DNA from: Bengtsoniella intestinalis
GTDB taxonomy: Bacteria > Bacillota > Clostridia > Oscillospirales > Oscillospiraceae
Assembly: GCF_039719005.1 (NCBI RefSeq)
Contig: NZ_CP133584.1
Span: 1,666,622 to 1,690,621, forward strand
Length of the DNA: 24,000 nucleotides
Direction of reading: 5' to 3'
Made by a program: the position numbers and the translations under genes. Shown here piece by piece: positions 1-20,923 of this stretch. Below the pieces are notes generated by a model, which saw only the letters and a program-made list of their open reading frames with translations, searched no databases and was not told the origin of the DNA. The first letter of the stretch is position 1, and each line of letters begins with the position of its first letter.

Positions 1-2584
1 ACGAGCCAACGTAGCTACCAGTTGCAACGGTACCCATGTTATAACCGTTCATCAGCACACTGCCGCTGCTCATATATCCCACAAGACCACCTGTGGTAGA
101 AGTGCTAGAGCCTGTTACAGTGCCAAGGTTATAGCTATTGTAAATCGCCCCAGAGGTTTGCCCCACCAAACCGCCAATGTTGGCTTTGCCACCATCGATG
201 ACAGAGATGGTTCCTTCATTAAAGGTGTTTTTCAAAACAGAAGAGTTGGAGGAGTTATTCCCCACAATGCCCCCTACATAGTTACTGCCGTTTACCGTGG
301 CATAGTTAGCGCTGTTGGTGATGGTGCCGTCACTATTTTCAGCGGTGATGCCACCTGCGGCGCCCAAGCTATCCACAATACCATTGTTATAAGCTTTGGT
401 GATGGCGGCATATTGGGTATACCCCACAATGCCACCTGCATAAGAGGCGGCATCCACAGTGCCGTAGTTCACAGCACCGTTGACAGAGCTACCACTGCTG
501 TTTAAATAGCCAATCAAACCGCCAGCCCGAGCGCCACCTGTTTTCACGGTGACGCTATTGCTTTCAGAGGTGCCGTTGGCAATATTGGTGTAAGTGCCTG
601 CGCCATAGCCTACCAAACCGCCTACATACGCATAAGAGGTTGCGGTGGCTTCCACAGTACCGTTTATCACCGTCACATTGGACACATTGGTGCCAAAATA
701 AACACGACCTGCCAATGCGCCTACATAGGAATCCCCTGTGACATTGACATTTTCTAAAGTTAAATCTTTGATATAAGAAGTGCTATCATATCCATAGCCC
801 ACTGCCGCAAATAAGCCAGCTTCTTCATCATTGGATAGCACAGTCAGGTTTTTAATGGTGTGCCCCGCACCGTCAAAGTTACCTTTAAAGGTATTGGGAA
901 TAGGGGTCCAATAATACCCATCCAGGTCAATGTCTGCGCCTAAGGTCAAGGTTTGGTTATAGTAGGTATCGCCAGACATGCCTTGCATGTAGGACACATA
1001 GGCCAATTCATCGGCGGTGGTGATGGTTTTATTGGAAAAAGCGGTAGGTGTCAACATTTTAATGTTGGCATCGGTGATGGCCGTGCTCCCCACAGACAGG
1101 GGAATGGCCACGGTTAGCTTGTTGTCTGCCGTGACAGACAAGGTGTAGCTACCAGGTGCTACGCTGGTGAAGGTGTATGCGCCGTCTTCATCCGTATAGG
1201 CAGCTTCTGTACCCAGTTGCACCAATGCACCTTCCAATTTGCCAGAAGAATCAGAGATGGTACCAGAAACATCAATCAGCGCCGCAAAGCTTGGGCTGGC
1301 AGCGTTGCCAATCCATGTGGCAGGGTTGTAGCCGTCCATAGACCAAGCGTTCAAAGCGTCAACCAAAGTGTCAGCCAATAGGGAGCTAGAACCATATTCT
1401 GTTAAATTACCACTAGAATCAAAGGTGCCACAGTCGCTTAAATTAGGGCTACTGTCACCGCTAGGCGACATATCTGCATCATTCCAATAGCAGTTTTGAA
1501 TCATTCCGCCACTACTTTGGGTGTCCACAAGAGCGACAGGGGTTTCATTTGTAGCCATAACCACTTCCCCTGCATTGTAGCTGTTGTAAACATTGCTGGC
1601 ACGACCAGCAAGCCCTGCCATATAGGGATCAGTTTCCAAAGTAAAGGTTGCTTCCACAGGTGTGGAAACGGAAACCTTCCCAGTGTTATAGCTGTTTGCC
1701 ACAGTGGTACCACTACCCATAAGGCCACCCATATAGGTGTATGCAATACTGTATTCTTCATTATCTGTGCCAGTCAGTGCCAAGGTCACAGTCCCCGTGT
1801 TGGCGCAGTTTTCCATGATATTCCCAAAGGCACCCGCCAGACCACCAGTGTAATTGCTTTTTACGCTGTCCAAAGACAGATTCATGGTAATCGCCCCATT
1901 GTTGGTGCAGTAGGACATATAATACCCACCATACCCACAGATACCGCCTACATACCGATCAGAGCTCATCCCTGTATTGTTGACGCTGGCATTGTTTTCC
2001 AGATTCATCAGGGTAGTTCCGTTGGACAAATCGGTATAATATTGTGCGTAGCCCATAATGCCACCCACATAACCAGGGGCAGAAATGGCGCCGCTGGACA
2101 CGGTGACACCAGAAACAGTGCTCCCCACCGCCACATAACCAGCCAACGCACCAGCATATTGCACTTCAGTACCTGTCAAGGTAATGCTCACATTGGAGAG
2201 GGTCAAATCCTTGATGGTACCCTTCACACTGGTGAACAGCCCAGCATAGGTGTTGCTACCAATGGAGGTATCTGTAATGATTAAGTTAGAAATGGTTTTC
2301 CCATTGCCGTCCAAATAGATGGATTTGTCACTGATGTTGGCAATGGGTGCCCATTCCTCTGACAGGGTAATATCGTCCGTCAGCTTGAAATAATAATATC
2401 CAGATTGGGAGACCATGGATGCCACAGATGCCAACGCTTCCAAGCCTGCTTGGTCTGCAATCTGGTATGGGTCGTCCACTGTACCAGAGCCATCCCATGT
2501 GTCATCCGCCGCCAACGCTACCGTGGGCAGCATGGTGAGCACCATGGCTAGGGTTACAAACAGTGCTAATATTCGTCTTTTCAT
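1..2584 (-). CDS. Secreted GLUG-repeat cell-surface protein (adhesin / IgA-protease-like passenger); N-terminal 861 codons, runs off the left edge
   Basis: It is missing from the ORF track because no stop lies in the window. Reading the reverse complement from the ATG (complement of 2582-2584), preceded by AGGAGGA, gives an uninterrupted frame: MKRRILALFVTLAMVLTMLPTVALAADDTWDGSGTVDDPYQI... (signal peptide). The frame contains two modules of the type 'ADELA..DIDL..W.PI..F.G.FDG.GHTI.NL', each followed by many GG[LI][VAM]G (GLUG-type) repeats. A beta-sandwich-like stretch (YTFTSVAPGSYTLSVTA) separates the two modules. Confidence 0.8.
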   Translation of the reverse strand, partial: MKRRILALFVTLAMVLTMLPTVALAADDTWDGSGTVDDPYQIADQAGLEALASVASMVSQSGYYYFKLTDDITLSEEWAPIANISDKSIYLDGNGKTISNLIITDTSIGSNTYAGLFTSVKGTIKDLTLSNVSITLTGTEVQYAGALAGYVAVGSTVSGVTVSSGAISAPGYVGGIMGYAQYYTDLSNGTTLMNLENNASVNNTGMSSDRYVGGICGYGGYYMSYCTNNGAITMNLSLDSVKSNYTGGLAGAFGNIMENCANTGTVTLALTGTDNEEYSIAYTYMGGLMGSGTTVANSYNTGKVSVSTPVEATFTLETDPYMAGLAGRASNVYNSYNAGEVVMATNETPVALVDTQSSGGMIQNCYWNDADMSPSGDSSPNLSDCGTFDSSGNLTEYGSSSLLADTLVDALNAWSMDGYNPATWIGNAASPSFAALIDVSGTISDSSGKLEGALVQLGTEAAYTDEDGAYTFTSVAPGSYTLSVTADNKLTVAIPLSVGSTAITDANIKMLTPTAFSNKTITTADELAYVSYMQGMSGDTYYNQTLTLGADIDLDGYYWTPIPNTFKGNFDGAGHTIKNLTVLSNDEEAGLFAAVGYGYDSTSYIKDLTLENVNVTGDSYVGALAGRVYFGTNVSNVTVINGTVEATATSYAYVGGLVGYGAGTYTNIANGTSESNSVTVKTGGARAGGLIGYLNSSGSSVNGAVNYGTVDAASYAGGIVGYTQYAAITKAYNNGIVDSLGAAGGITAENSDGTITNSANYATVNGSNYVGGIVGNNSSNSSVLKNTFNEGTISVIDGGKANIGGLVGQTSGAIYNSYNLGTVTGSSTSTTGGLVGYMSSGSVLMNGYNMGTVATGSYVGS

Positions 2585-2868
2585 TTTTTCTCCTCCTGTG
2601 GGTTCTGAAATTTATTTGCATAGTCGTGCAAGCATACCCACAGTATAAGAGATACTCGAAAAAATTGGTAGGGATTACCTACTGCTATAGGTGGACTATC
2701 CACAGATAAATAGTAGAACTTAGCTCAATGATTTCATGTAAAATCTTAGATTTATCTCATTATCAGTAGATTATCCACATTTTTCATAGTATACTACCTA
2801 TACAGCCCACTGCTGGTTTAGTATGATAGCCTAGTATAGTGTTGCCATCACGGGAGGGGAGTGTTTTC

Positions 2869-3600
2869 ATGTATCGTGTGTATTTGTTAGATGATGACAG
2901 GGTTATTTTGGAAGAATTGCGCCGTAACATCTCTTGGCTAGACAATGGCTTTGAAGTTGTTGGCAGTAGCCATTCTCCCACCATTGCTATGGATGAAATT
3001 GCCCAATTACAGCCCGATTTGGTGGTCTCTGACTTGAAAATGGAACCCTTCGACGGCATTGAGCTGATGCAAAAGCTAAAAGAGCAGGGCATCACCCCCT
3101 ATTTCTTGATGGTCAGCGCCTACGGTTCCTTTGAAAACTCACGCCGCTTTTTCTTAGAGGGTGGCTACGACTATCTACTCAAGCCCTTCGACCCCCAAGA
3201 GGTACAGCTTATCTTGGACAAGCTGTACAAAATCTTGTCTGAGGCTTCTAAGGGTGGCGCTTCTCTCAATAACTACAACCCAGCCTTTGGTGATTTGCTT
3301 GCCTATTTACAAGAAAATTACCACCTAAAGCATACCTTGGAATCTCTGGGCAAACAATTTGCCCTCAGCCCAAACTATATCTGCACCCTCTTTTCCAAAC
3401 ACTGTGACACCACCCTGACCCACTATGTTACCGACCTGCGGATGACGGCGGCCAAGCATGAAATTGAAAAGGGGCAACAGCCATTGAAAGCCATTGCCAG
3501 CCAGTGTGGTTACAACGATTATCGGTATTTCAATCGGGTGTTTAAGGAATATTGTGGCGTGTCACCTAGGAACTACAAGGAAACAGGCGGTGGCGCATGA
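2869..3600 (+). CDS. Two-component response regulator, receiver plus AraC-type HTH output (YesN-like)
   Basis: The ATG at 2869 is preceded by GGGAGGGGA, so the track start at 2839 is probably too early. The receiver signature is MYRVYLLDDD...DLVVSDLKM...LMVSAYG...DYLLKP. The C-terminal AraC HTH signature is LAISPNY-type ...GYNDYRYFNRVFKEYCGVSPRNY. Confidence 0.9.
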   Translation: MYRVYLLDDDRVILEELRRNISWLDNGFEVVGSSHSPTIAMDEIAQLQPDLVVSDLKMEPFDGIELMQKLKEQGITPYFLMVSAYGSFENSRRFFLEGGYDYLLKPFDPQEVQLILDKLYKILSEASKGGASLNNYNPAFGDLLAYLQENYHLKHTLESLGKQFALSPNYICTLFSKHCDTTLTHYVTDLRMTAAKHEIEKGQQPLKAIASQCGYNDYRYFNRVFKEYCGVSPRNYKETGGGA

Positions 3601-5171
3601 ATTATTTTTTCCGTTGGATTTTCATGAGTCTTGGCATACTGGTCTTTGGCATCGCCCTAATTTTCACATGGGGCATAGAGGACACCACGCCCCAAGAGGT
3701 CTTAACCATCGCCATCCCCTACCAAGAGGATATTTTTGATATCAATGATAGCACCTATGTAGCTTGGCTCAGTGAACAAATCGGCATGACGGTGGAATTT
3801 TCTTTTTTGCAATCCAACTACACCGACAGCTATATCAAGCAAATTTTAGCTGACCCCAATACGGCCTATGATGGGATATTTTTCACCAAAAGTACAGCAC
3901 CAACTCAAACGGAGCTAAGCGCCTATATCGCCACAGGGGGTATTGTGGCGATAGATACTTGGATTGACCAAGAAAGTGTCTATCTGGCAGAAACCCTGAA
4001 TACCTTTGATGATTACGATTTAAGGCAGGAAATCACCCATACCGATGGTCACATCTATTATATGCCTGCCTTAGATGCCTCCTCTGTGTCCAAATCCGCC
4101 CAAACCATGTGGGTCAACGTGGATTTATTGGAGGATGTGGGGCTACAGCTCCCCTCCACCACCGAGGACTTTGCCCAGATGCTGGCCGCCTTTGCGGACT
4201 ATGATGGAACCATGGCACCTATCATGGGCACCAGTGATCAGAGCTACTTCTTTCCCCTATACTTTTTGATGAATTCCTTCATCACCTGTGATAACCAAAA
4301 TCACTTTTTATATCTGGAAGGTAGTGAAGTTCTCTTTGCGCCCTCCAGTGATAACTGGAGGGCGGGATTACAGTACTGTAATCGGCTTTTTGCCCAAGGG
4401 CTGATACCCGATGCGGTGTTCAACTATTCCCAAGATGCCTTTCTTGCTATCTGCAATGACCCCGACAATCTGGTGGGTTGCTTTACCACCGACTCTATCG
4501 CCAGTGTGCTCTCAGAAAATTCCCCTGCCCTGCTCAGCCGCTATCTGGCGGTTTCGCCCTTGGACAGCGGATACAACACCCCAGTGGCTCTGGTATCTAC
4601 GCCACTGCCCAGTGTAGGTGGCGTTGTGCTGTCCACCTCTCAGTACCAAGATGAGGTGTTTGCCCTGATGGATTTGATGTGCAGTGAGGAGGGCTATCTC
4701 CGTGGTCATTACGGTGTCCCAGACGAGGATTGGACGGAGGCCGCCCCAGAGGATATCACCGTCAGCGGTGATAAGGCAGTCATTACGGTAACCCAATCGG
4801 TGGGTACCACCAGCGATACAGACAGCGCCCACGTCATTGGCCCCTACATCGCCAGCGAAACCTATGCCGATATGGTGGCATGGAAGGGCTATCAGGTGAA
4901 CCAAAGCGCCTATTTGGATGCCCGTGCCTATCGCACCTATGAGTATTACGCCCCAGAGGAGTCATTGCCTTACTTACAGCTATCCACCGATACAGTCCAA
5001 GAGTTGGATGCCTTTGTAGAGGAAGCTATGATTGCCTTTGTCACAGGGGAATGGGACATTGATAGCGACGAAGCCTGGCAAGCCTATTTAGATGCCCTAG
5101 CTACCTATTCCGTGGATGATTTGGTAGCACAGGGACAACTGTTCTATACAGAAAGCGAGGAAACCCCATGA
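3597..5171 (+). CDS. Large extracellular solute-binding protein (LplA/YesO-like, family 1), membrane-anchored by an N-terminal TM helix
   Basis: Its ATG overlaps the regulator stop (ATGA). The N-terminal hydrophobic helix is FRWIFMSLGILVFGIALIF, with no lipobox Cys. The size of about 520 aa and the composition fit the big sugar-binding SBPs that accompany YesM/YesN systems. Confidence 0.75.
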   Translation: MNYFFRWIFMSLGILVFGIALIFTWGIEDTTPQEVLTIAIPYQEDIFDINDSTYVAWLSEQIGMTVEFSFLQSNYTDSYIKQILADPNTAYDGIFFTKSTAPTQTELSAYIATGGIVAIDTWIDQESVYLAETLNTFDDYDLRQEITHTDGHIYYMPALDASSVSKSAQTMWVNVDLLEDVGLQLPSTTEDFAQMLAAFADYDGTMAPIMGTSDQSYFFPLYFLMNSFITCDNQNHFLYLEGSEVLFAPSSDNWRAGLQYCNRLFAQGLIPDAVFNYSQDAFLAICNDPDNLVGCFTTDSIASVLSENSPALLSRYLAVSPLDSGYNTPVALVSTPLPSVGGVVLSTSQYQDEVFALMDLMCSEEGYLRGHYGVPDEDWTEAAPEDITVSGDKAVITVTQSVGTTSDTDSAHVIGPYIASETYADMVAWKGYQVNQSAYLDARAYRTYEYYAPEESLPYLQLSTDTVQELDAFVEEAMIAFVTGEWDIDSDEAWQAYLDALATYSVDDLVAQGQLFYTESEETP

Positions 5172-8415: not shown

Positions 8416-8597
8416 AAGTCGTACCCAACGCTTTGCCAACCAATAAGTGGTGCAAAAGGGCGTGAAATGGTGTGCATTTTTAGTGCGAATATATATAATT
8501 ATGAGCGTACAATGAAATAAATGTCGAAAGCGGAAGTGTAGTTCCTGTAAAATATATGTGTTTTCCTTTATACTTCTTATAAAAAGGAGAAAACACT

Positions 8598-8813
8598 ATG
8601 CTAAAAGAAGCTTTAGCAGTCATACTTCGGCAAACACGGAAAGATAAAGGATGGACACAAGAGCAGGCAGCAGAAAAATGCGGCATTTCGGATAGAAGTA
8701 TTCGAGATGTGGAACACGGAAGTACCAATTTAAAGATAGACACCGTAGAGAAGATATGTAGCGGAATCGGCGTTATCGTCACTCTCCAAGGACTGGGTGA
8801 TAATGATGCATGA
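8598..8813 (+). CDS. XRE-family helix-turn-helix regulator (71 aa)
   Basis: The RBS is AAGGAG. The HTH_3 pattern is LRQTRKDKGWTQEQAAEKCGISDRSIRDVEHG. Confidence 0.8.
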   Translation: MLKEALAVILRQTRKDKGWTQEQAAEKCGISDRSIRDVEHGSTNLKIDTVEKICSGIGVIVTLQGLGDNDA

Positions 8814-9258
8814 TGTACCATTTATTTACCCCAGAATATATGATACGCTTTATGAGCTGGGGATTACTGCCAACTATGTTGGCTTTTTTCATACCTCTTT
8901 CGGCGTGTATTTGGCAGTTAACCAACCTGAGCGTATGCAGTATATTACAAAGTGGCTCTATCCAGATATTGCAAAGCAATATCATACCAACTGGAAATCG
9001 GTGGAGCGAAATATTCGTTCTGTGACTGCTATTGCCTGGAACACAAACCCGTTATTATTGCAAACTATGGCACGACACCCTCTAAGCAAAAGACCTTGTA
9101 ATTCCCAATTTATCGCTATCTTAGCCGCTCAATTTCCCTTGCCCTTATTCGGTGCCTGCGCTCTTTTGCCACAAGAGGGATTGACGGTATCTAACAAGGA
9201 ATACAGGCACCTAGTTGCGGTGGCTAGTGAAGCGGATAGACAAAAAATAAGCATCTAA
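8797..9258 (+). CDS. Standalone Spo0A C-terminal (DNA-binding) domain protein
   Basis: The stretch GITANYVGFFHTSFGVYLAV...ITKWLYPDIAKQYHTNWKSVERNIRSVTAIAW...KRPCNSQFIAILAAQF matches the Spo0A effector domain pattern (ITK.LYPDIAKK..TT.S.VERAIRHAIEVAW...KPTNSEFIA..A). There is no receiver domain. It overlaps the XRE gene by 17 nt. Confidence 0.75.
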   Translation: MIMMHDVPFIYPRIYDTLYELGITANYVGFFHTSFGVYLAVNQPERMQYITKWLYPDIAKQYHTNWKSVERNIRSVTAIAWNTNPLLLQTMARHPLSKRPCNSQFIAILAAQFPLPLFGACALLPQEGLTVSNKEYRHLVAVASEADRQKISI

Positions 9259-12041
9259 ATCTTATATTTCTTCTGGATATACCCCAAAAATGCCTCGATT
9301 TCATCCTGTGCGTTTTTGGGGATTTTCTTGTCCCAGAATACCGTTGGCACAGAAAATGCCGTGAGGCTATGGTTTGCCTTTAGGAAGTACACTTGCTCCT
9401 GTGAGAGTACCAATTTCCGAATGGCATAGCCATTATCTGTCCATGTGTGGGAGATGCAGTTGGGGGCGGTATCGTACCAGAAGTTGCTTTGTGTACTCTC
9501 CAAATACCCTAGCTGTTGCCCCAATAGGCGGCCTATCTCTTGAAAGGTCATCATAAAGCCTTGCCGATGTTCTTTGCGAAAATGTTCTCGCAATGCCCCA
9601 TAGTCGTGGGTTGGGAAGGTGGTGTTTTCTTCTGGCTGATAGTCGTTTAATTGCTCTAGCAGAGCGGACACATCTAGCCCTCTCACATGACTGGCATCAC
9701 GATACTCCACCGTATGCTCAGAGCATTTGATATGGATGTAAGCGGAGAATTTACCCAAAGGTTCCGTGTCTATGACAGTCAGCTGATGGCTTGGGAGCAT
9801 GGCCTTGCCACAGAGATAGCATTTGCCATCTTGGGACTTCCATAGTCGCTTATATTTGCCGCCTTTGTTGTTGACTGCACGGCGGTAATCCAAGGATTTT
9901 TTGTACTCGGTATCGAGGAAGTGATTGTAGTTGGTTTTCACTGGAAGGTATCGAATGGGCACGGTGTCTACGCAACGAATAACCTGTAAATGCCGTTTGT
10001 CCTCGGCAGAAAAAATGTATTCATCCTTGCTGATTTTGTACCAAAACTTCTTCTCCAACTTGGTCCAGTATTGTCGTGGAAACAAGGCTCTGACCTTTTG
10101 AATGAGCAGTGCTTGTATCACCACATCCAAATGACGAAAGGCATCGTGGGCATCGGTCATGCGGTGATAAGAGGTGTAGCCCACAATCATTTTGTTGAGA
10201 CCTATAATCAACTCCTCCACACTTCCAGTGTGTCGCTCAATGTAGTGCATCAGCTTTTCTTCAAAGCGCCGTAAATTGTCTTTGGATGGCTCTGCAATCA
10301 CCTTGCCATTACGAAGGTGATAGTACCGTCCTAAAAATGCAAAACCCTGTTGGATGGAGCGAATGGAGCTTTTCTCCTCGGAGAGTTTCAGTCCACGGAC
10401 AGATAGAAAATCGGCTACGATGGACTTGATTTCTTTGGCCTGTGCCTCGCTCTTGGCAAAGACTAAAATATCATCGGCAAAGCGAATGAGGTCGCCATAG
10501 GCATAGTTTTCCACAGGGGCACCGCCATAGAGCCTGCGTTGGATATAGGACTGCAACCCATCAAGCACCATGTTCCCGATAACAGGTGAGATGCCAGAGC
10601 CTTGGCTAATGCCCACTTCTTCCGCTGGGAACAGCTCGCCATTGAGGATTATCCCTGCATTGAGATACGCTTTTAATGGGGCTTTCAATGGCAAGTTCCG
10701 TAAAATCCAACGGTGAGAGATGGTATCGTAATAGCTTTTTACATCTGCACGGAGCACCCACAAGGGCACCTTGCTCCCCTCTAAGGTGCGACGAATATAA
10801 TGGTCTACATCAAACCCACTGCGCCCTTTTCGAAAGCCAAAGGATTTGCGGTCAGCCGTGGTCTCGGCCACTGGCTCTAGGGCATACCGCACGAGGGTCT
10901 GCATAGCTCTGTCTCGATAGGTGGGGATGTTAATTCTACGGTCTTTTTTTCCATCAAAAATCACCACACAGCGTAATGGCTGGCAGACGTAGCCCTCCAC
11001 CTTCAAGTCAAAGGTCGCTTGCATCTTTTGGCTGCTTGTCTCCCAACGCACCCCATCTGTGCCGACCTCCGATTCTGTTTCTGAAACGTGTCGCACTGCG
11101 AGGGCACGGGCTTCTGGAAGGTTAATGATTTCATCTTGCATCTGGTCTATCTGTGAGCGATTGCGCTCTCGCACCGCTCGTGCTACGGCCTGTTGCTTTT
11201 CAAAAAGAATACGTTCATAGCTAGGCCAGTCAATGCCATCCCAAAGGCGAGATAGCAGGGTTGCCGTCCATGTCATTTGCCGTGAAATGGAGGTGGTTAC
11301 TTCCAATGATATAGGGCAATGGTCTGAGCCGTGGATATGGGAGAGGATTTCTGTGTCTAACACCGTGGGGAGCAATCGTTGGGACACCAGAAAATAGTCC
11401 AATCGCCAGCCCCGATCTTCACGGCGCTTGAACAGACGGTATGACCACCAAGTATAGCCACGGGTTTCTGGGTTTTGTAGGCGGTATACATCCACCAAGC
11501 CCCAATGCAATAGCCGTTCAAATTTGGCACGCTCTATGGGTTGAAAGCCCACTGGATTTTTTTCATTGCGAAGATTTTCGGGGTAAATGTCAATGTAGGT
11601 ATGGGCAACATTGAAGTCACCACAGATTATCATGGGCTTATTCAATGCCTTTAGATATTTGAAAAAAGCATCGTCCCAATCGCTCCGATAGTTGTCACGA
11701 CTGAGCCGACCCTTGGACATGGGTTGGTAGACATTGATGAGATAAAAATCCTCAAATTCAAGGGTTAAAATTCGCCCCTCAATATCAAATTGCTCTAATC
11801 CTAAACCTTCACGGACAGAGATGGGGGGTACTCGTGATAGCACCAGCACCCCAGAGTAACCCCGTCTGCGTGAACTATTCCAGTAGGCCTCATAGCCCGA
11901 AATCTCTAGCTTGGCCTGCTTGCGAGTAGATTTGATTTCTTGGATGCAATACACATCGGCATCCAACTCTTGAATTTTTTCAACAAAGCCCTTTTTCATG
12001 CAGGCACGAAGGCCGTTGACGTTCCACGATATAATTTTCAT
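9255..12041 (-). CDS. Fusion protein: ExoIII/APE-type (EEP) endonuclease, then group II intron-like reverse transcriptase (RT0-7 plus thumb/X), then a degenerate HNH/Zn module, then a domain of unknown function
   Basis: - The ORF is 928 aa, with RBS AGGAGAG.
- aa 1-248 form an ExoIII fold with all catalytic positions present: WNVNG (N7), QE (E35), VYQP (Y105), GDFN (D142/N144), RLDY (D215), SDH (D240/H241).
- aa 270-575 carry the RT motifs: IDW...LAVRHV...GTDG (RT0), RRINIPTYRDRAMQ (1), FGFRKGRS (2a), LRADVKSYYDTISH (3), GISQGSGISPVIGN (4), IRFADDILVF (5, complement of 10470-10481), GLKLSEEKS (6), GFAFLGRYY (7).
- The thumb is LNKMIVGYTSYHR.
- aa 741-776 read CYLCG...IHIKCSEH.
- aa 810-928 are unassigned. 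Confidence 0.9.
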   Translation of the reverse strand: MKIISWNVNGLRACMKKGFVEKIQELDADVYCIQEIKSTRKQAKLEISGYEAYWNSSRRRGYSGVLVLSRVPPISVREGLGLEQFDIEGRILTLEFEDFYLINVYQPMSKGRLSRDNYRSDWDDAFFKYLKALNKPMIICGDFNVAHTYIDIYPENLRNEKNPVGFQPIERAKFERLLHWGLVDVYRLQNPETRGYTWWSYRLFKRREDRGWRLDYFLVSQRLLPTVLDTEILSHIHGSDHCPISLEVTTSISRQMTWTATLLSRLWDGIDWPSYERILFEKQQAVARAVRERNRSQIDQMQDEIINLPEARALAVRHVSETESEVGTDGVRWETSSQKMQATFDLKVEGYVCQPLRCVVIFDGKKDRRINIPTYRDRAMQTLVRYALEPVAETTADRKSFGFRKGRSGFDVDHYIRRTLEGSKVPLWVLRADVKSYYDTISHRWILRNLPLKAPLKAYLNAGIILNGELFPAEEVGISQGSGISPVIGNMVLDGLQSYIQRRLYGGAPVENYAYGDLIRFADDILVFAKSEAQAKEIKSIVADFLSVRGLKLSEEKSSIRSIQQGFAFLGRYYHLRNGKVIAEPSKDNLRRFEEKLMHYIERHTGSVEELIIGLNKMIVGYTSYHRMTDAHDAFRHLDVVIQALLIQKVRALFPRQYWTKLEKKFWYKISKDEYIFSAEDKRHLQVIRCVDTVPIRYLPVKTNYNHFLDTEYKKSLDYRRAVNNKGGKYKRLWKSQDGKCYLCGKAMLPSHQLTVIDTEPLGKFSAYIHIKCSEHTVEYRDASHVRGLDVSALLEQLNDYQPEENTTFPTHDYGALREHFRKEHRQGFMMTFQEIGRLLGQQLGYLESTQSNFWYDTAPNCISHTWTDNGYAIRKLVLSQEQVYFLKANHSLTAFSVPTVFWDKKIPKNAQDEIEAFLGYIQKKYKI

Positions 12042-12073
12042 GTAGGCTCTCCTATGTATGGTGTATAGTTCAG

Positions 12074-12103
12074 ATTATAGCATAAGAGTAGTACCTGTTC
12101 TAA
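12074..12103 (-). promoter_or_regulatory. Candidate dedicated promoter of the APE-RT gene
   Basis: On the minus strand: TTAGAA, an 18-bp spacer, then TGcTATAAT (extended -10). It sits in the 73-bp gap between the MBL gene stop and the RT start. Confidence 0.4.
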
Positions 12104-12114
12104 GTGGAGCTACA

Positions 12115-13383
12115 TCATGGGCAACAATTTCCGCATGGAGAGTAGCCATTTTCGATTAAAACCTCTCTGTCCTCCGTGGAGGTGGCATAATTCTTAGCGG
12201 ACATTTGGGATACGCTATAACAATCTGGGTAATGGAATTTGTGGCTACTGGTGTTCAGCACATAATAAAATTCGGAATCAGAATCGTCGTCGGTGGTATC
12301 TGTAATAGTGCCTGTTACAGTGGAGGTATTACTTGTTGGAGCGGTAAGCAGTTCATTGTCGCTGATGATTTTATCGGTGGTAACTGTCACGGTCTGCCCA
12401 TCGGAGGTGCAGATAATGTCACCTTGTAAATCCGTGCGATACAGGGTGACGTCAGCATCCCTCAGACGGCTCAATACGGCATCTGTGGGGTGCCCGTAGG
12501 AGTTACCCTCGCCACAGGAAATAACAGCGTACTGGGGCATGATTTCCCTCAAAAAGAGGTAGCTAGTAGATGTGTCACTGCCGTGGTGACCTACCTTTAG
12601 AACGGTGGAAGATAGGTCTGTTCCACTGTTCAATAACACCTGTTCAGCCTCATATTCTGCATCCCCCGTAAAGAGAAAAGAGGTCTCACCATAGGTGATT
12701 TTAAGCACGATAGATGTGTTGTTGGCATCGGTATCACTGTTGACTGCGAGAATGTCAATGTCAGCACTGCCCAATGTGTATTCGTCGCCTACGCTGGGTA
12801 CAGTGATACCGCCATTGAGGTCGGCATAATAGGCGAAATTCTCAAAGGCGTTGCTGTCATAGGTGGTCACTGGGCAGAGTATAGTATCAGCAGTTGCGTA
12901 GTTCAGTGCGCCGCTCAAACCGCCGATGTGGTCCTCGTGGGCGTGCGTCCCAACTACGATGGACAACTCGGTAATACCACGCTTGTCGAGGACGGAATAG
13001 ATTAAATTTGAGTCGGCCACATTGCCACCATCTATCAGCATATACTCCCCATCGCAGGAGACGAGAGCGGCATCAGCTTGTCCAACGTCCAAGAAGATAA
13101 TTTCAAAGGTGGAATCCTCCGATATGAGGGTTGTTGAAGTCTCCGTGTAGGTATTTGTGATACTGTCTATAGTCGGCTCAGTAGCGGTTTCTAAGGGCAG
13201 TTCAGCAGGGGTCTCTAAAGAAGGTGTAGGGGTTTCGAGTAAGATAATCTGTTCTACCCCTTGAGACACAGATGGGCTAGGTGTTTCAACATAATCGGCG
13301 GTGCTCTCACACCCAACCGAACAGCACAATATCATAAACATAGCTACAAATAACTGCAAGCCTTTTTTCCTTTTCATGGTCAA
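12115..13383 (-). CDS. Lipoprotein with a ComEC-like metallo-beta-lactamase fold domain and a C-terminal Cys/His zinc-ribbon-like tail
   Basis: The lipobox is FMILCCSVGC|E, followed by a Thr/Ser/Pro/Glu-rich linker. The MBL motifs are IIFLDVGQADA...LIDGG...GTHAHEDHIGG...GHHG...YGHP. The tail is HKFHYPDC...GYSPCGNCCP. Confidence 0.85.
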   Translation of the reverse strand: MTMKRKKGLQLFVAMFMILCCSVGCESTADYVETPSPSVSQGVEQIILLETPTPSLETPAELPLETATEPTIDSITNTYTETSTTLISEDSTFEIIFLDVGQADAALVSCDGEYMLIDGGNVADSNLIYSVLDKRGITELSIVVGTHAHEDHIGGLSGALNYATADTILCPVTTYDSNAFENFAYYADLNGGITVPSVGDEYTLGSADIDILAVNSDTDANNTSIVLKITYGETSFLFTGDAEYEAEQVLLNSGTDLSSTVLKVGHHGSDTSTSYLFLREIMPQYAVISCGEGNSYGHPTDAVLSRLRDADVTLYRTDLQGDIICTSDGQTVTVTTDKIISDNELLTAPTSNTSTVTGTITDTTDDDSDSEFYYVLNTSSHKFHYPDCYSVSQMSAKNYATSTEDREVLIENGYSPCGNCCP

Positions 13384-18629: not shown

Positions 18630-20923
18630 TCAATTTTGTTTTTCCAAAAATGCTAAAAAGTCTGACTGAGGCATGGGACGTGCAAAGCCATAGCCTTGGC
18701 CCACATCACAGCCTAAGTTGCGGAAAAACTCAATCTGCTGGTTGGTCTCCAAACCTTCGGCTACCGTTTCCAGTTGAAGTTCTTGTGCCATGCCAACGAT
18801 ATGTGCCACAATGGAGGCACCTTTTTTACTCTCCAGTGCGTCCACAATAAATTGGCGATCTATTTTCAGGGTGTCCAGAGGGATGTTTTTCAAGCGTCCC
18901 AGAGAGGAGATACCTACCCCAAAGTCGTCCATGGCGATGGTAAAACCGAGCTCTCGTAGCTGGCGAATCTTGTCGGTGGCCACTGCGAAATTTTTGATGA
19001 GAGCACTTTCGGTAATTTCTAGGTCAAGCTGACGGGGCGAGAGGCCATAGCTGTCCACAATACCAGCGACCTGCTGGACGAAATTATGCTTCATAATGGT
19101 GACACCCGAGAGGTTCACAGAGATGACAGGGAGATTGTCAGACTTGTGGCTTTGAATAAACTGGCACACCTCGCCTAGTACATAGTAATCTAAGGTTTCG
19201 ATGAATCCATTCTTTTCGAAAATGGGGATAAAGTCGTTGGGGGCACCAACTTCCCGTCACGCACCCAACGCACCAGTGCCTCGGCACCCACTGTTTGCTC
19301 TGTTTTCAGATGTACTTGGGGCTGATAATAAACCACAAACTCCTTGTTGGCCACACCAGTTTTCATGTGGGAGACAATCTCATTGGATTTGTCTCGCTCC
19401 TGAGACATCTGAGGTGTGAATCCGTGGATGGTAAGCTCCGCTGTCTCTTTGCCCAAATCCTTAGCCAGCTTAGCGCAGTTACACATATAGCTGATGGACA
19501 GGGTGGGGTCTGTAATATGATAGTAGCCAATGCTATGGCTGTAGTGGTAGTCACGTCCCAAGGGTTGGCTAAAGTCGGCAAAGCCAGACTCCATGAAATG
19601 GGCACCCTCTCCCAGATAGCCGACATGAATATCTAGGGTGGGGATTAAAATCCAAAATTGGTCTGCAAAGCTTCGAGCAATCACCAGTGCAGTGGTGGCC
19701 GTTTCACGGAGATATTCACCATAAGCCTTGAGCACAAGGGTGCCTGTGTTATAGCCGTAAAGCTCGTTGATGTATTTGAAATTATCAATATCGAGGCAAA
19801 AGATGGTGTACTGTTTCTGTGGCTTTTCATCCATGAGGTGGAGTAATTCTGTCTCAAAGTGGTGGAGGGTGGCCAGCCCAGTGACGCTGTCCACCGTCAA
19901 TGTCCTCTTCAAATTGCGTTTTTCCTTGCGGTTTGCCAGCGCTTGCATTACACCCACCGCAGCCACCACAATTAACACGATAATCATAGCTATCTGGAGG
20001 GCACGCATGGGATTTGCAGCAATGAGTTCAGCCAATGTAAAGTCGGGGGCGTATACATAAGTCGAGTGGTTAAGGATGGAGTAGGAGATGGCCGAAGTGT
20101 CCAGATACCCAATCATTTTGTTGAGAATATCAATTTTATCTTGAGAAAAATGACTGGGATAGGCGAAGGCACAGTAGTAATGGTCAGAGAGAAGGTCAAT
20201 GGTGTAGTTCTCGCTAGAGATTAGACCCTTTGATACATTATACCGTGCAGTGCTGAGCACCATACCTCTAATGGAGTCATCAGCAAATGCGGCATTTAAG
20301 TCATCAAATTGCGAAAAGACTATCACCTCAGCACCGTCGAACATAGCATCCAAATCATCTTGTGAACGATCATAGTAGGCCAGAATACCCACAGGGAGGT
20401 CAATGGTTGTCCCGAGGTTATCATTATGAATCATGACATAGGGCATATCGAAATAAGAGGGGCTAATTTGGGCGATATTCTCGATATCAGGACACTGCCG
20501 AGTAATGCAAAAATCCACATCGTTAATGGAGGCCCCCTCCACCCCAAGATTGACGTATTCTACATTTAACTCTAAGGCCTCAGCAATGGCAGAAAATACA
20601 TCCATCGCCGCACCCGCAAGCTCCTCGCCGTGGAGATAACTCATAGGCTGAAGGTCTGGCATATAGCCCACCAAATACACCTCTTGAGACTGCATGAAAG
20701 CAATTTCGTCTTCCGTTAAAATATCCTCTACCATCACCTCACTAGAGCTGACATCGACAGCCACCTCAACAGCTAAACCTATGGTGGAGAGTAAAAGCGC
20801 CATTATACACGTCATCGCAAAACAACGTAAAATATATCGTTTCATAGAATTCAATTGCTCACTTTTCCCAGTTCCTTGCACTTCTAAAACTGTACTTAAT
20901 CGTATCGTAATTATACTTTTCAC
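18630..20923 (-). pseudogene. Frameshifted membrane signalling protein: periplasmic SBP_bac_3-like sensor, TM helix, degenerate GGDEF domain, EAL phosphodiesterase domain
   Basis: - The 577-aa and 179-aa track ORFs are one gene.
- Reading through 19239-19243 (GGGGG, which is C5 on the coding strand) with one extra base restores ...GAEALVRWVRDGKLVPPNDFIPIFEKNGFIETLDYYVLGEVCQFIQSHK....
- The GGDEF site is SFADQF (degenerate).
- The EAL motifs are intact (EAL, DDFGVG, KIDRQF, AEGLET, QGY).
- The likely true start is the ATG at 20845 (MKRYILRCF...). Confidence 0.75.

Follow-up and report, generated by a model that had tools for sequence, protein, structure and literature searches.

The stretch of Bengtsoniella intestinalis DNA considered here (contig NZ_CP133584.1, positions 1,666,622 to 1,690,621; 24,000 nucleotides, referred to below as the window) carries on its minus strand, at 9255..12041, an open reading frame (ORF) of 928 amino acids (P0001) in which an AP endonuclease is fused to a reverse transcriptase (RT). 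We refer to the product as Xth-RT. From its N-terminus, the protein comprises an ExoIII/APE nuclease (the Xth domain), RT0, RT, X/thumb, a degenerate HNH-Zn module and DUF7662. Its RT is closest to those of group II introns, and the questions addressed here are whether the gene is part of an intron or of a retroelement, and what such a fusion may do.

Gene boundaries, intron RNA and protein architecture

The gene is tightly enclosed. Upstream lies a co-oriented ORF for a metallo-β-lactamase (MBL) protein, and the 73 bp that the original prediction placed between the stop of this ORF and the start of the RT gene are exact in their coordinates. Downstream, its further claim that the TAG of the RT gene and the TAA of a convergent gene overlap within CTAA, which leaves no 3′ untranslated region (UTR), was confirmed. 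No Rfam model, those of group II introns included, matched at the gathering score anywhere in the window, and between 7500 and 14500 no intron model appeared even at E<=10. This null result counts as a valid test because true introns of the same genome were detected: in the positive controls L004, L005, L006 and L008 the models recovered D1-D4 and/or domain V/VI, and 11 related introns were all found by the same Rfam scan. At the locus of a paralogue in the same genome (L002) the scan found no intron RNA either, nor did it find any in the 143 kb that make up 12 homologous loci. The nearest RTs outside the family, at 35-39% identity, all lie inside detectable introns.

Termini of a retroelement were likewise absent. 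Around the RT gene we found no target-site duplication (TSD) and no poly-A, and the repeats present there are imperfect pairs of 12-24 nt at the level of chance. A DNA-level search of the 3.83-Mb genome returned no further copies, only patches of 65-80% identity within the coding region of the paralogue. The original prediction had described a free-standing RT with no room for a ribozyme, flanked by neither poly-A, TSD nor repeats; with flanks of 73 and 0 bp and no intron match at the window, at L002 or at the 12 loci, this description stands. The covariance-model scan that it proposed yielded no domain V/VI or other intron model around the gene, and the DNA search disclosed no identical multi-copy unit elsewhere in the genome.

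The N-terminal nuclease is of the canonical repair type. It scores 263.8 bits against TIGR00633 xth (cut-off 99) and 5e-28 against Pfam Exo_endo_phos, and its PDB matches are ExoA (8igi, 5e-76) and human APE1 (about 1e-58). The LINE-type Pfam model Exo_endo_phos_2 stays below threshold (24.3, cut-off 27.4). In an alignment of 25 family members the catalytic residues N7/N9, E35, Y105, D142, N144, D215, D240 and H241 are invariant or nearly so. The RT is of intron type, scoring 223 bits against TIGR04416, which is under the equivalog cut-off of 300. Its best PDB sequence match is the T.el4h intron protein (6me0, 6.6e-78, residues 264-755), and this match spans RT0-RT7, X, D and the cysteine pairs of En.

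The En region itself is degenerate. Its zinc ligands (C741, C744, H770, C773) do not vary in the same alignment. A profile built from the last 269 residues still aligns with the D/En region of 6me0 (4.6e-12), but non-histidine residues stand in place of the catalytic EIHHILP. No histidine is invariant across the family between C744 and Y768, so the module falls short of a functional HNH. The DNA-cleaving nuclease thus appears to have changed from HNH to APE. The protein ends in DUF7662 (PF24698), which is also found in the paralogue and in homologues and is modelled at a pLDDT of 80-94. Structural comparison with VIA-align gave a weak winged-helix likeness for DUF7662 (RepE, Pi, Stn1 and CtsR at Z 4.6-5.5) and weak HNH-like matches for the C-terminal region (Z 3.5-4), and a Foldseek search with the C-terminal 269 residues returned no match at E<=0.001; both fold likenesses of the modelled region are suggestive only. 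Elsewhere, in the ESM Atlas, DUF7662 occurs fused to XRE regulators, GmrSD_C/DUF4268 nucleases, GNAT and CBS proteins.

As to expression, the original prediction had read an own promoter and a ribosome-binding site (RBS) into the 73-bp gap. The RBS holds; the promoter is plausible with a weak -35, TTAGAA, which agrees with the consensus at 3/6 positions and was for this reason not called by the consensus scan. That scan finds a perfect sigma-70 promoter, TTGACA-16-TATAAT, at 13478-13451 on the minus strand ahead of the MBL gene, and a scan of the gap found no terminator between the MBL and RT genes. With a strong promoter upstream and a terminator-free gap, co-transcription of the two genes by read-through is therefore equally possible. 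The only upstream bases conserved with L002 and with a relative, L176, are the -10-like block and the RBS; the upstream genes of L002 and L176 are unrelated to those of the window copy. Comparison of homologous loci for conserved non-coding blocks, also suggested at the outset, thus returned this block and the RBS and no family-wide RNA structure at the 3′ end, where RNAalifold on 18 loci predicted 0 pairs.

Table 1. Coordinates of the features discussed in the text; positions refer to the window unless a locus is named.
Feature	Position	Strand	Remarks
ExoIII/APE nuclease (Xth)	11298..12041	-	residues 1-248; full-length EEP fold
RVT_N (RT0 / N-terminal extension)	11010..11243	-	residues 267-344; type typical of group II and non-LTR RTs
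RVT_1, fingers and palm	10329..10946	-	residues 366-571
RT active site F-A-D-D	10470..10481	-	residues 521-524; A-D-D invariant, 521 F or Y in the family
Domain X / thumb (GIIM)	10053..10271	-	residues 591-663
D and En remnant	9672..10049	-	residues about 665-790
DUF7662	9258..9611	-	residues about 811-928; small alpha/beta domain, last ~120 residues
3′-terminal patch	window 9261..9329; L002 1501-1572	-	codons 905-927; 66/69 nt and 20/23 third positions identical
Shared stops, CTAA	9255-9258		RT TAG (-) overlaps TAA (+) of convergent Spo0A_C gene; 0 bp of 3′ space
Intergenic gap	12042..12114	-	73 bp; too short for ribozyme domains I-IV
Putative promoter in gap	TTAGAA 12103-12098; TGcTATAAT 12082-12074	-	18-nt spacer
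RBS, AGGAGA	12053-12048	-	6 nt ahead of the RT-gene ATG
Upstream MBL ORF	12115..13383	-	co-oriented; ComEC-C-terminal-like hydrolase; TGA at 12117-12115
Convergent pair	XRE 8598-8813; Spo0A_C 8797-9258	+	neighbours only
G402 loci	L010 461-3294 and 7190-7470; L230 5042-7833; L231; L232; L233
YpsA/SLOG genes, examples	L176 4582-5043; L109 4569-5057; L114 4604-5137

The Xth-RT family and its genomic contexts

A protein search of the source genome found two family copies (100% and 55% identity), one stand-alone xth gene and ordinary intron RTs. The second copy, L002, has flanks of 93 bp and 53 bp. On one side it meets, tail-to-tail, a gene segment (98-1444, plus strand) for the C-terminal portion of the R subunit of a type I restriction system; on the other, 93 bp upstream of it, lies a gene for a 270-amino-acid protein without a Pfam match (4357-5169, minus strand). 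Because L002 groups in the tree as sister to another family member, P0002, and not to the window copy, the two copies of this genome were, to judge from the phylogeny, acquired separately. They share 58% DNA identity, and 45% at the third positions of shared residues, and their homology stops at the stop codon. A near-identical patch at their 3′ ends (table 1) holds a 12-bp hairpin, 9282-9293 / 9310-9321, which is confined to the subclade of the window protein; P0002 differs at 4/23 patch residues. Gene conversion may have produced this patch, or it may be a 3′ RNA element peculiar to the lineage.

The family is large. A search of 5.8 billion proteins gave, at E<1e-210, at least 118 protein clusters of 908-979 amino acids that share the four Pfam domains of Xth-RT, few of which carry a name (a Rikenellaceae metagenome-assembled genome (MAG), Enterocloster). 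Among members that share an element context, the ratio of nonsynonymous to synonymous substitution rates (dN/dS) is 0.03-0.07 in each of six segments, with dS saturated, and these ratios indicate that the family is under strong purifying selection in every domain. An intact ORF, selection in all domains and two diverged copies bear out the earlier view that the protein is domesticated and not an active intron. A branch with an SH-aLRT of 100 divides a tree of 80 RT-X regions into all 37 Xth-linked RTs and the 43 intron-type RTs; those members of the intron-type side that were scanned carry real ribozymes. The Xth-linked clade is thus sister to the intron RTs, and the window protein belongs to a five-member subclade within it.

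Nuclease and RT do not always share a polypeptide. Split forms, with a separate xth gene directly before the RT gene, occur at L010, L100, L107, L108 and L112 (at L010 xth spans 461-1216 and the RT gene 1213-3294, a 4-nt overlap), and shorter fused or split forms without DUF7662 (L115, 1722-4277; L116, 553-3104) belong to the same clade in the tree. L115 is flanked by rho and lon; close to L116 lies an ABC transporter gene. The existence of split two-gene and of shorter fused forms therefore shows that the pairing of nuclease and RT is itself selected.

The distribution of the family is patchy. Among 400 genomes sampled from its class, the source genome is the only one with a full-length member. 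No record in PLSDB plasmids or INPHARED phages covers at least 80% of the RT-to-C-terminus query, the matches there being ordinary intron RTs. Full-length members are present on four IMG/VR contigs and about 20 metagenome contigs, the metagenome and viral contigs having been scanned with the RT-to-C-terminus alignment; a scan of genome contigs with the full-length alignment recovered mostly stand-alone xth genes, with family members at 3/80 loci. In the full-text literature, of which our coverage is incomplete so that novelty is unproven, we found no description of a bacterial Xth/APE-RT fusion or of DUF7662, and this large conserved family is apparently undescribed.

One genome, an Oscillospiraceae MAG (G402), has four full family copies and two fragments. 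Between two of its copies, L010 and L230, an identity of 92% begins at xth codon 15 and ends with the RT stop; beyond these limits the flanks are unrelated. The second segment at L010 is a 5′-truncated pseudogene that starts at the DUF7662 region, ends exactly at the stop codon and carries a frameshift and a stop. The last ~50 nt of L230 match this fragment and not its near-twin at L010. The other fragment, L233, is truncated at both ends, and no TSDs were found at the G402 copies. Homology between L107 and L108 is similarly limited to the gene pair, from -2 to +1.

Several neighbours recur beside homologues. A gene for a YpsA/SLOG-DprA-like protein of 153-177 amino acids lies on the same strand 80-170 bp upstream at six distinct loci (~585 bp in L102); none lies near either copy in the source genome, which has three YpsA genes elsewhere. 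Genes for an XRE regulator in divergent orientation and, immediately downstream, for a tyrosine integrase also recur, as do those for large serine recombinases (DUF4368 is present in some), a TraG/VirB4-like ATPase, a RecD2-type helicase, YqaJ exonuclease, and ParB-like and DUF6551 proteins. The homologues lie on conjugative or prophage-like elements. At L176, the closest viral-contig homologue, a pemK RNA motif (RF02913, 69 bits) was seen ~2.3 kb upstream of the gene, at 2846-2926 on the minus strand.

The MBL and Spo0A_C neighbours of the window copy do not recur beside homologues. The MBL gene had been considered as a partner through a PADLOC RTasMBL match (4.9e-16) and was rejected because no MBL gene is found by the homologues. 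From 8.4 kb on, the window is a mosaic of mobile-element genes, with XRE genes, an NlpC/P60 fragment, a truncated and an intact recombinase, IS110, and DDE and IS3-type transposases; no marked GC shift was seen in the window. In the convergent pair, the gene for the 71-amino-acid XRE regulator has 17 nt in common with the beginning of the Spo0A_C gene. A 113-amino-acid ORF on the opposite strand (8480-8821, minus) has no family match and looks spurious, the real gene there being the plus-strand XRE gene. Farther along, a GGDEF-EAL protein is divided over two minus-strand ORFs within 18630-20923: the one at 19190-20923 stops early in EAL and 18630-19169 holds the remainder, which suggests a frameshift or nonsense mutation.

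Origin and proposed role

We favor, at a probability of roughly 0.6, the hypothesis that the free-standing Xth-RT gene descends from that of a group II intron protein and has been domesticated, that it is not an intron and, within this genome, no retrotransposon either, and that it encodes an incise-and-extend enzyme. In the history that we envisage, an intron protein with the order RT-X-D-En would have shed its ribozyme, lost the catalytic histidines from the HNH module, and gained an ExoIII/APE domain at its N-terminus and DUF7662, possibly DNA-binding, at its C-terminus. The conserved family so formed is carried by integrative, conjugative and prophage-like elements among gut Bacillota and Bacteroidota. 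The Xth domain may incise an abasic site or a nick, or trim a blocked 3′ end, and so expose a 3′-OH; the tethered RT would then extend this 3′-OH on a DNA or RNA template, while the zinc module and DUF7662 would hold the enzyme on the nucleic acid. The overall role would be that of a repair or end-processing enzyme, acting for the host or for the mobile element that carries it. Because the flanks of both copies measure 0-93 bp, no dedicated adjacent non-coding RNA (ncRNA) would be needed.

This mechanism rests on the established chemistry of ExoIII/APE and on the demonstration that G2L4, and with it a mobile group II RT that has YADD, act as DNA-templated polymerases in repair and can copy past abasic sites (bioRxiv 10.1101/2022.03.14.484287). 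The same work bears on the template: the original prediction had named the gene's own mRNA, an antisense transcript or an RNA encoded elsewhere, and this list may serve for an RNA template, yet it omits DNA. Several points weigh against the incise-and-extend hypothesis. The template, the substrate and the beneficiary, be it host or mobile element, are ones that we infer. The active site is F/YADD and not the YIDD of the repair enzyme G2L4. Mobile carriage, the restriction-gene neighbour of L002 and the fusions of DUF7662 to GmrSD-type nucleases fit a role in phage conflict equally well. Finally, the gene-sized units of homology, the 5′-truncated copies in G402 and the exchange of 3′ patches are unexplained by a pure repair role.

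The main rival, which we regard as possible and rather unlikely, is that the Xth-RT gene alone makes up an anti-phage (or anti-defence) system similar to DRT systems, whose RT would make a DNA product upon infection or entry of foreign DNA, with Xth as the effector or as a processor of invader DNA and DUF7662 as a sensor or DNA-binding module. Such a system would suit the patchy distribution of the family, its presence on mobile elements and IMG/VR contigs, and the tail-to-tail placement of L002 and the type I restriction R subunit gene; it would also suit the DUF7662 fusions to GmrSD_C and DUF4268 restriction-type nucleases and the genes of the conflict-linked SLOG/YpsA family directly upstream in six distinct loci. 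However, this YpsA partner is missing from both loci of the source genome, the short forms L115 and L116 sit among housekeeping genes (rho, lon, ABC transporter), and no space exists for an adjacent ncRNA. Profiles of known systems also remain far from their cut-offs (NCBIfam Drt3a 47.9 against 200, Drt2 26.9 against 390, retron_St85 31.8 against 235), and PADLOC gives generic RT matches only.

The G402 copies bring in a different explanation, an autonomous APE-type retroelement resembling a long interspersed nuclear element (LINE). Here the protein would bind the 3′ end of its own mRNA, Xth would nick DNA and reverse transcription would be primed at the target, the moving unit being little larger than the ORF. 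We consider it improbable that the family is a bacterial counterpart of LINEs, arisen independently from a group II intron protein, in which an ORF-sized unit occasionally moves or converts the 3′ ends of resident copies. Retroposition initiated at the 3′ end would nevertheless explain why homology is limited at the stop codon, why G402 has 5′-truncated copies and why paralogues of 58% identity share a 3′ patch. The order APE-RT-Zn knuckle is that of LINE ORF2p, and in unrelated contexts homology ends at the ends of the ORF, both between L107 and L108 and between the window copy and L002. G402, with its four full copies and two fragments, adds the pair whose similarity begins at xth codon 15 and the pseudogene that ends exactly at the stop codon, and 3′-terminal patches have been exchanged among co-resident copies in two genomes. 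Against this, the source genome has two copies only, at 55% amino acid identity and not each other's closest relatives, with no TSD, poly-A tail or 3′ UTR, and the RT is of intron type and not of the non-LTR clade. The -10-like block, which lies upstream of the transcript, travels with the gene, and DNA-level transfer is therefore suggested. Moreover, syntenic element contexts persist through saturated dS, split two-gene forms exist, a 3′ RNA structure common to the family is lacking and the G402 fragment L233 is truncated at both ends. The original prediction that the gene is not LINE-like accordingly holds in this genome and is weakened for the family as a whole by the gene-sized duplicates and the 5′-truncated fragment of G402, through which a low-frequency mode of retroposition is conceivable for the family, if unlikely. 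If the retroelement explanation were true, this would be the first APE-type target-primed retroelement in bacteria.

It is hardly credible that the gene is functionless, left over from a group II intron in decay that had its ribozyme deleted and kept its ORF by chance. The degenerate HNH module and the broken mobile-element genes of the region (truncated recombinase, NlpC/P60 fragment, insertion sequence elements) would agree with decay, but the 928-codon ORF is intact, the catalytic residues of nuclease and RT are invariant or nearly so across the family, dN/dS is low throughout, and hundreds of homologues, in at least 118 clusters, carry the same added domains.

Comparison with known systems

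Group II-like (G2L) RTs have been defined as free-standing RTs that are close to intron RTs and have no ribozyme (PMC2602772). Judged by its sequence, Xth-RT belongs under this definition, being a relative of intron RTs with no ribozyme. Like G2L RTs such as G2L4 of Pseudomonas aeruginosa, it has an intron-like RT with RT0 and domain X, is encoded on chromosomes or mobile elements by a single gene copy or a few, and may plausibly have a repair-type activity. The Xth fusion, the D/En remnant and DUF7662 set it apart, and they are not among the extensions described in PMC2602772; the active site of the family is also F/YADD where G2L4 has YIDD. The functions of free-standing group II-like RTs are mostly open, and the pairing with Xth offers a testable hypothesis, nuclease-primed DNA synthesis.

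With group II intron proteins (T.el4h 6me0, LtrA, GsI-IIC RT) Xth-RT shares RT0-7, X, D and the En cysteine pairs, and intron RTs from plasmids and metagenomes are 32-39% identical to it. Unlike them, it has no intron RNA or room for one, has lost the catalytic HNH histidines, has gained Xth and DUF7662, and is not multi-copy in the source genome. The family may represent a natural experiment in which an intron protein exchanged HNH for APE, the same swap that is inferred for early non-LTR retrotransposon evolution.

Human LINE-1 ORF2p likewise joins in one polypeptide an APE nuclease, an RT0-type extension and RT, a thumb and a Cys/His zinc module, and follows the same logic, in which the nuclease makes the primer for the RT. 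The FADD active-site motif is as in L1. In contrast to LINE ORF2p, the RT of Xth-RT is of intron lineage and its nuclease of the canonical ExoA/Xth repair type (264 bits, TIGR00633), and the source genome shows no ORF1, UTR, poly-A, TSD or expansion in copy number. No LINE RT is among the PDB sequence matches listed, and the best RT models and structures are intron-encoded proteins. Because the RT is of intron lineage, the likeness to LINE ORF2p is best read as convergent. As a compact enzyme that would nick and then reverse-transcribe, Xth-RT is also of practical interest for templated genome writing.

The PrimPol-RT (PPRT) of E. coli offers a further parallel, as it too combines a group II-like RT with an N-terminal enzyme of DNA metabolism and a long C-terminal domain, and it has been implicated in the DNA-damage response and in phage defence (bioRxiv 10.1101/2025.09.07.674619). 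The N-terminal partner is a primase-polymerase in PPRT and an AP endonuclease/3′-exonuclease in Xth-RT, which is much shorter and has a different C-terminal domain.

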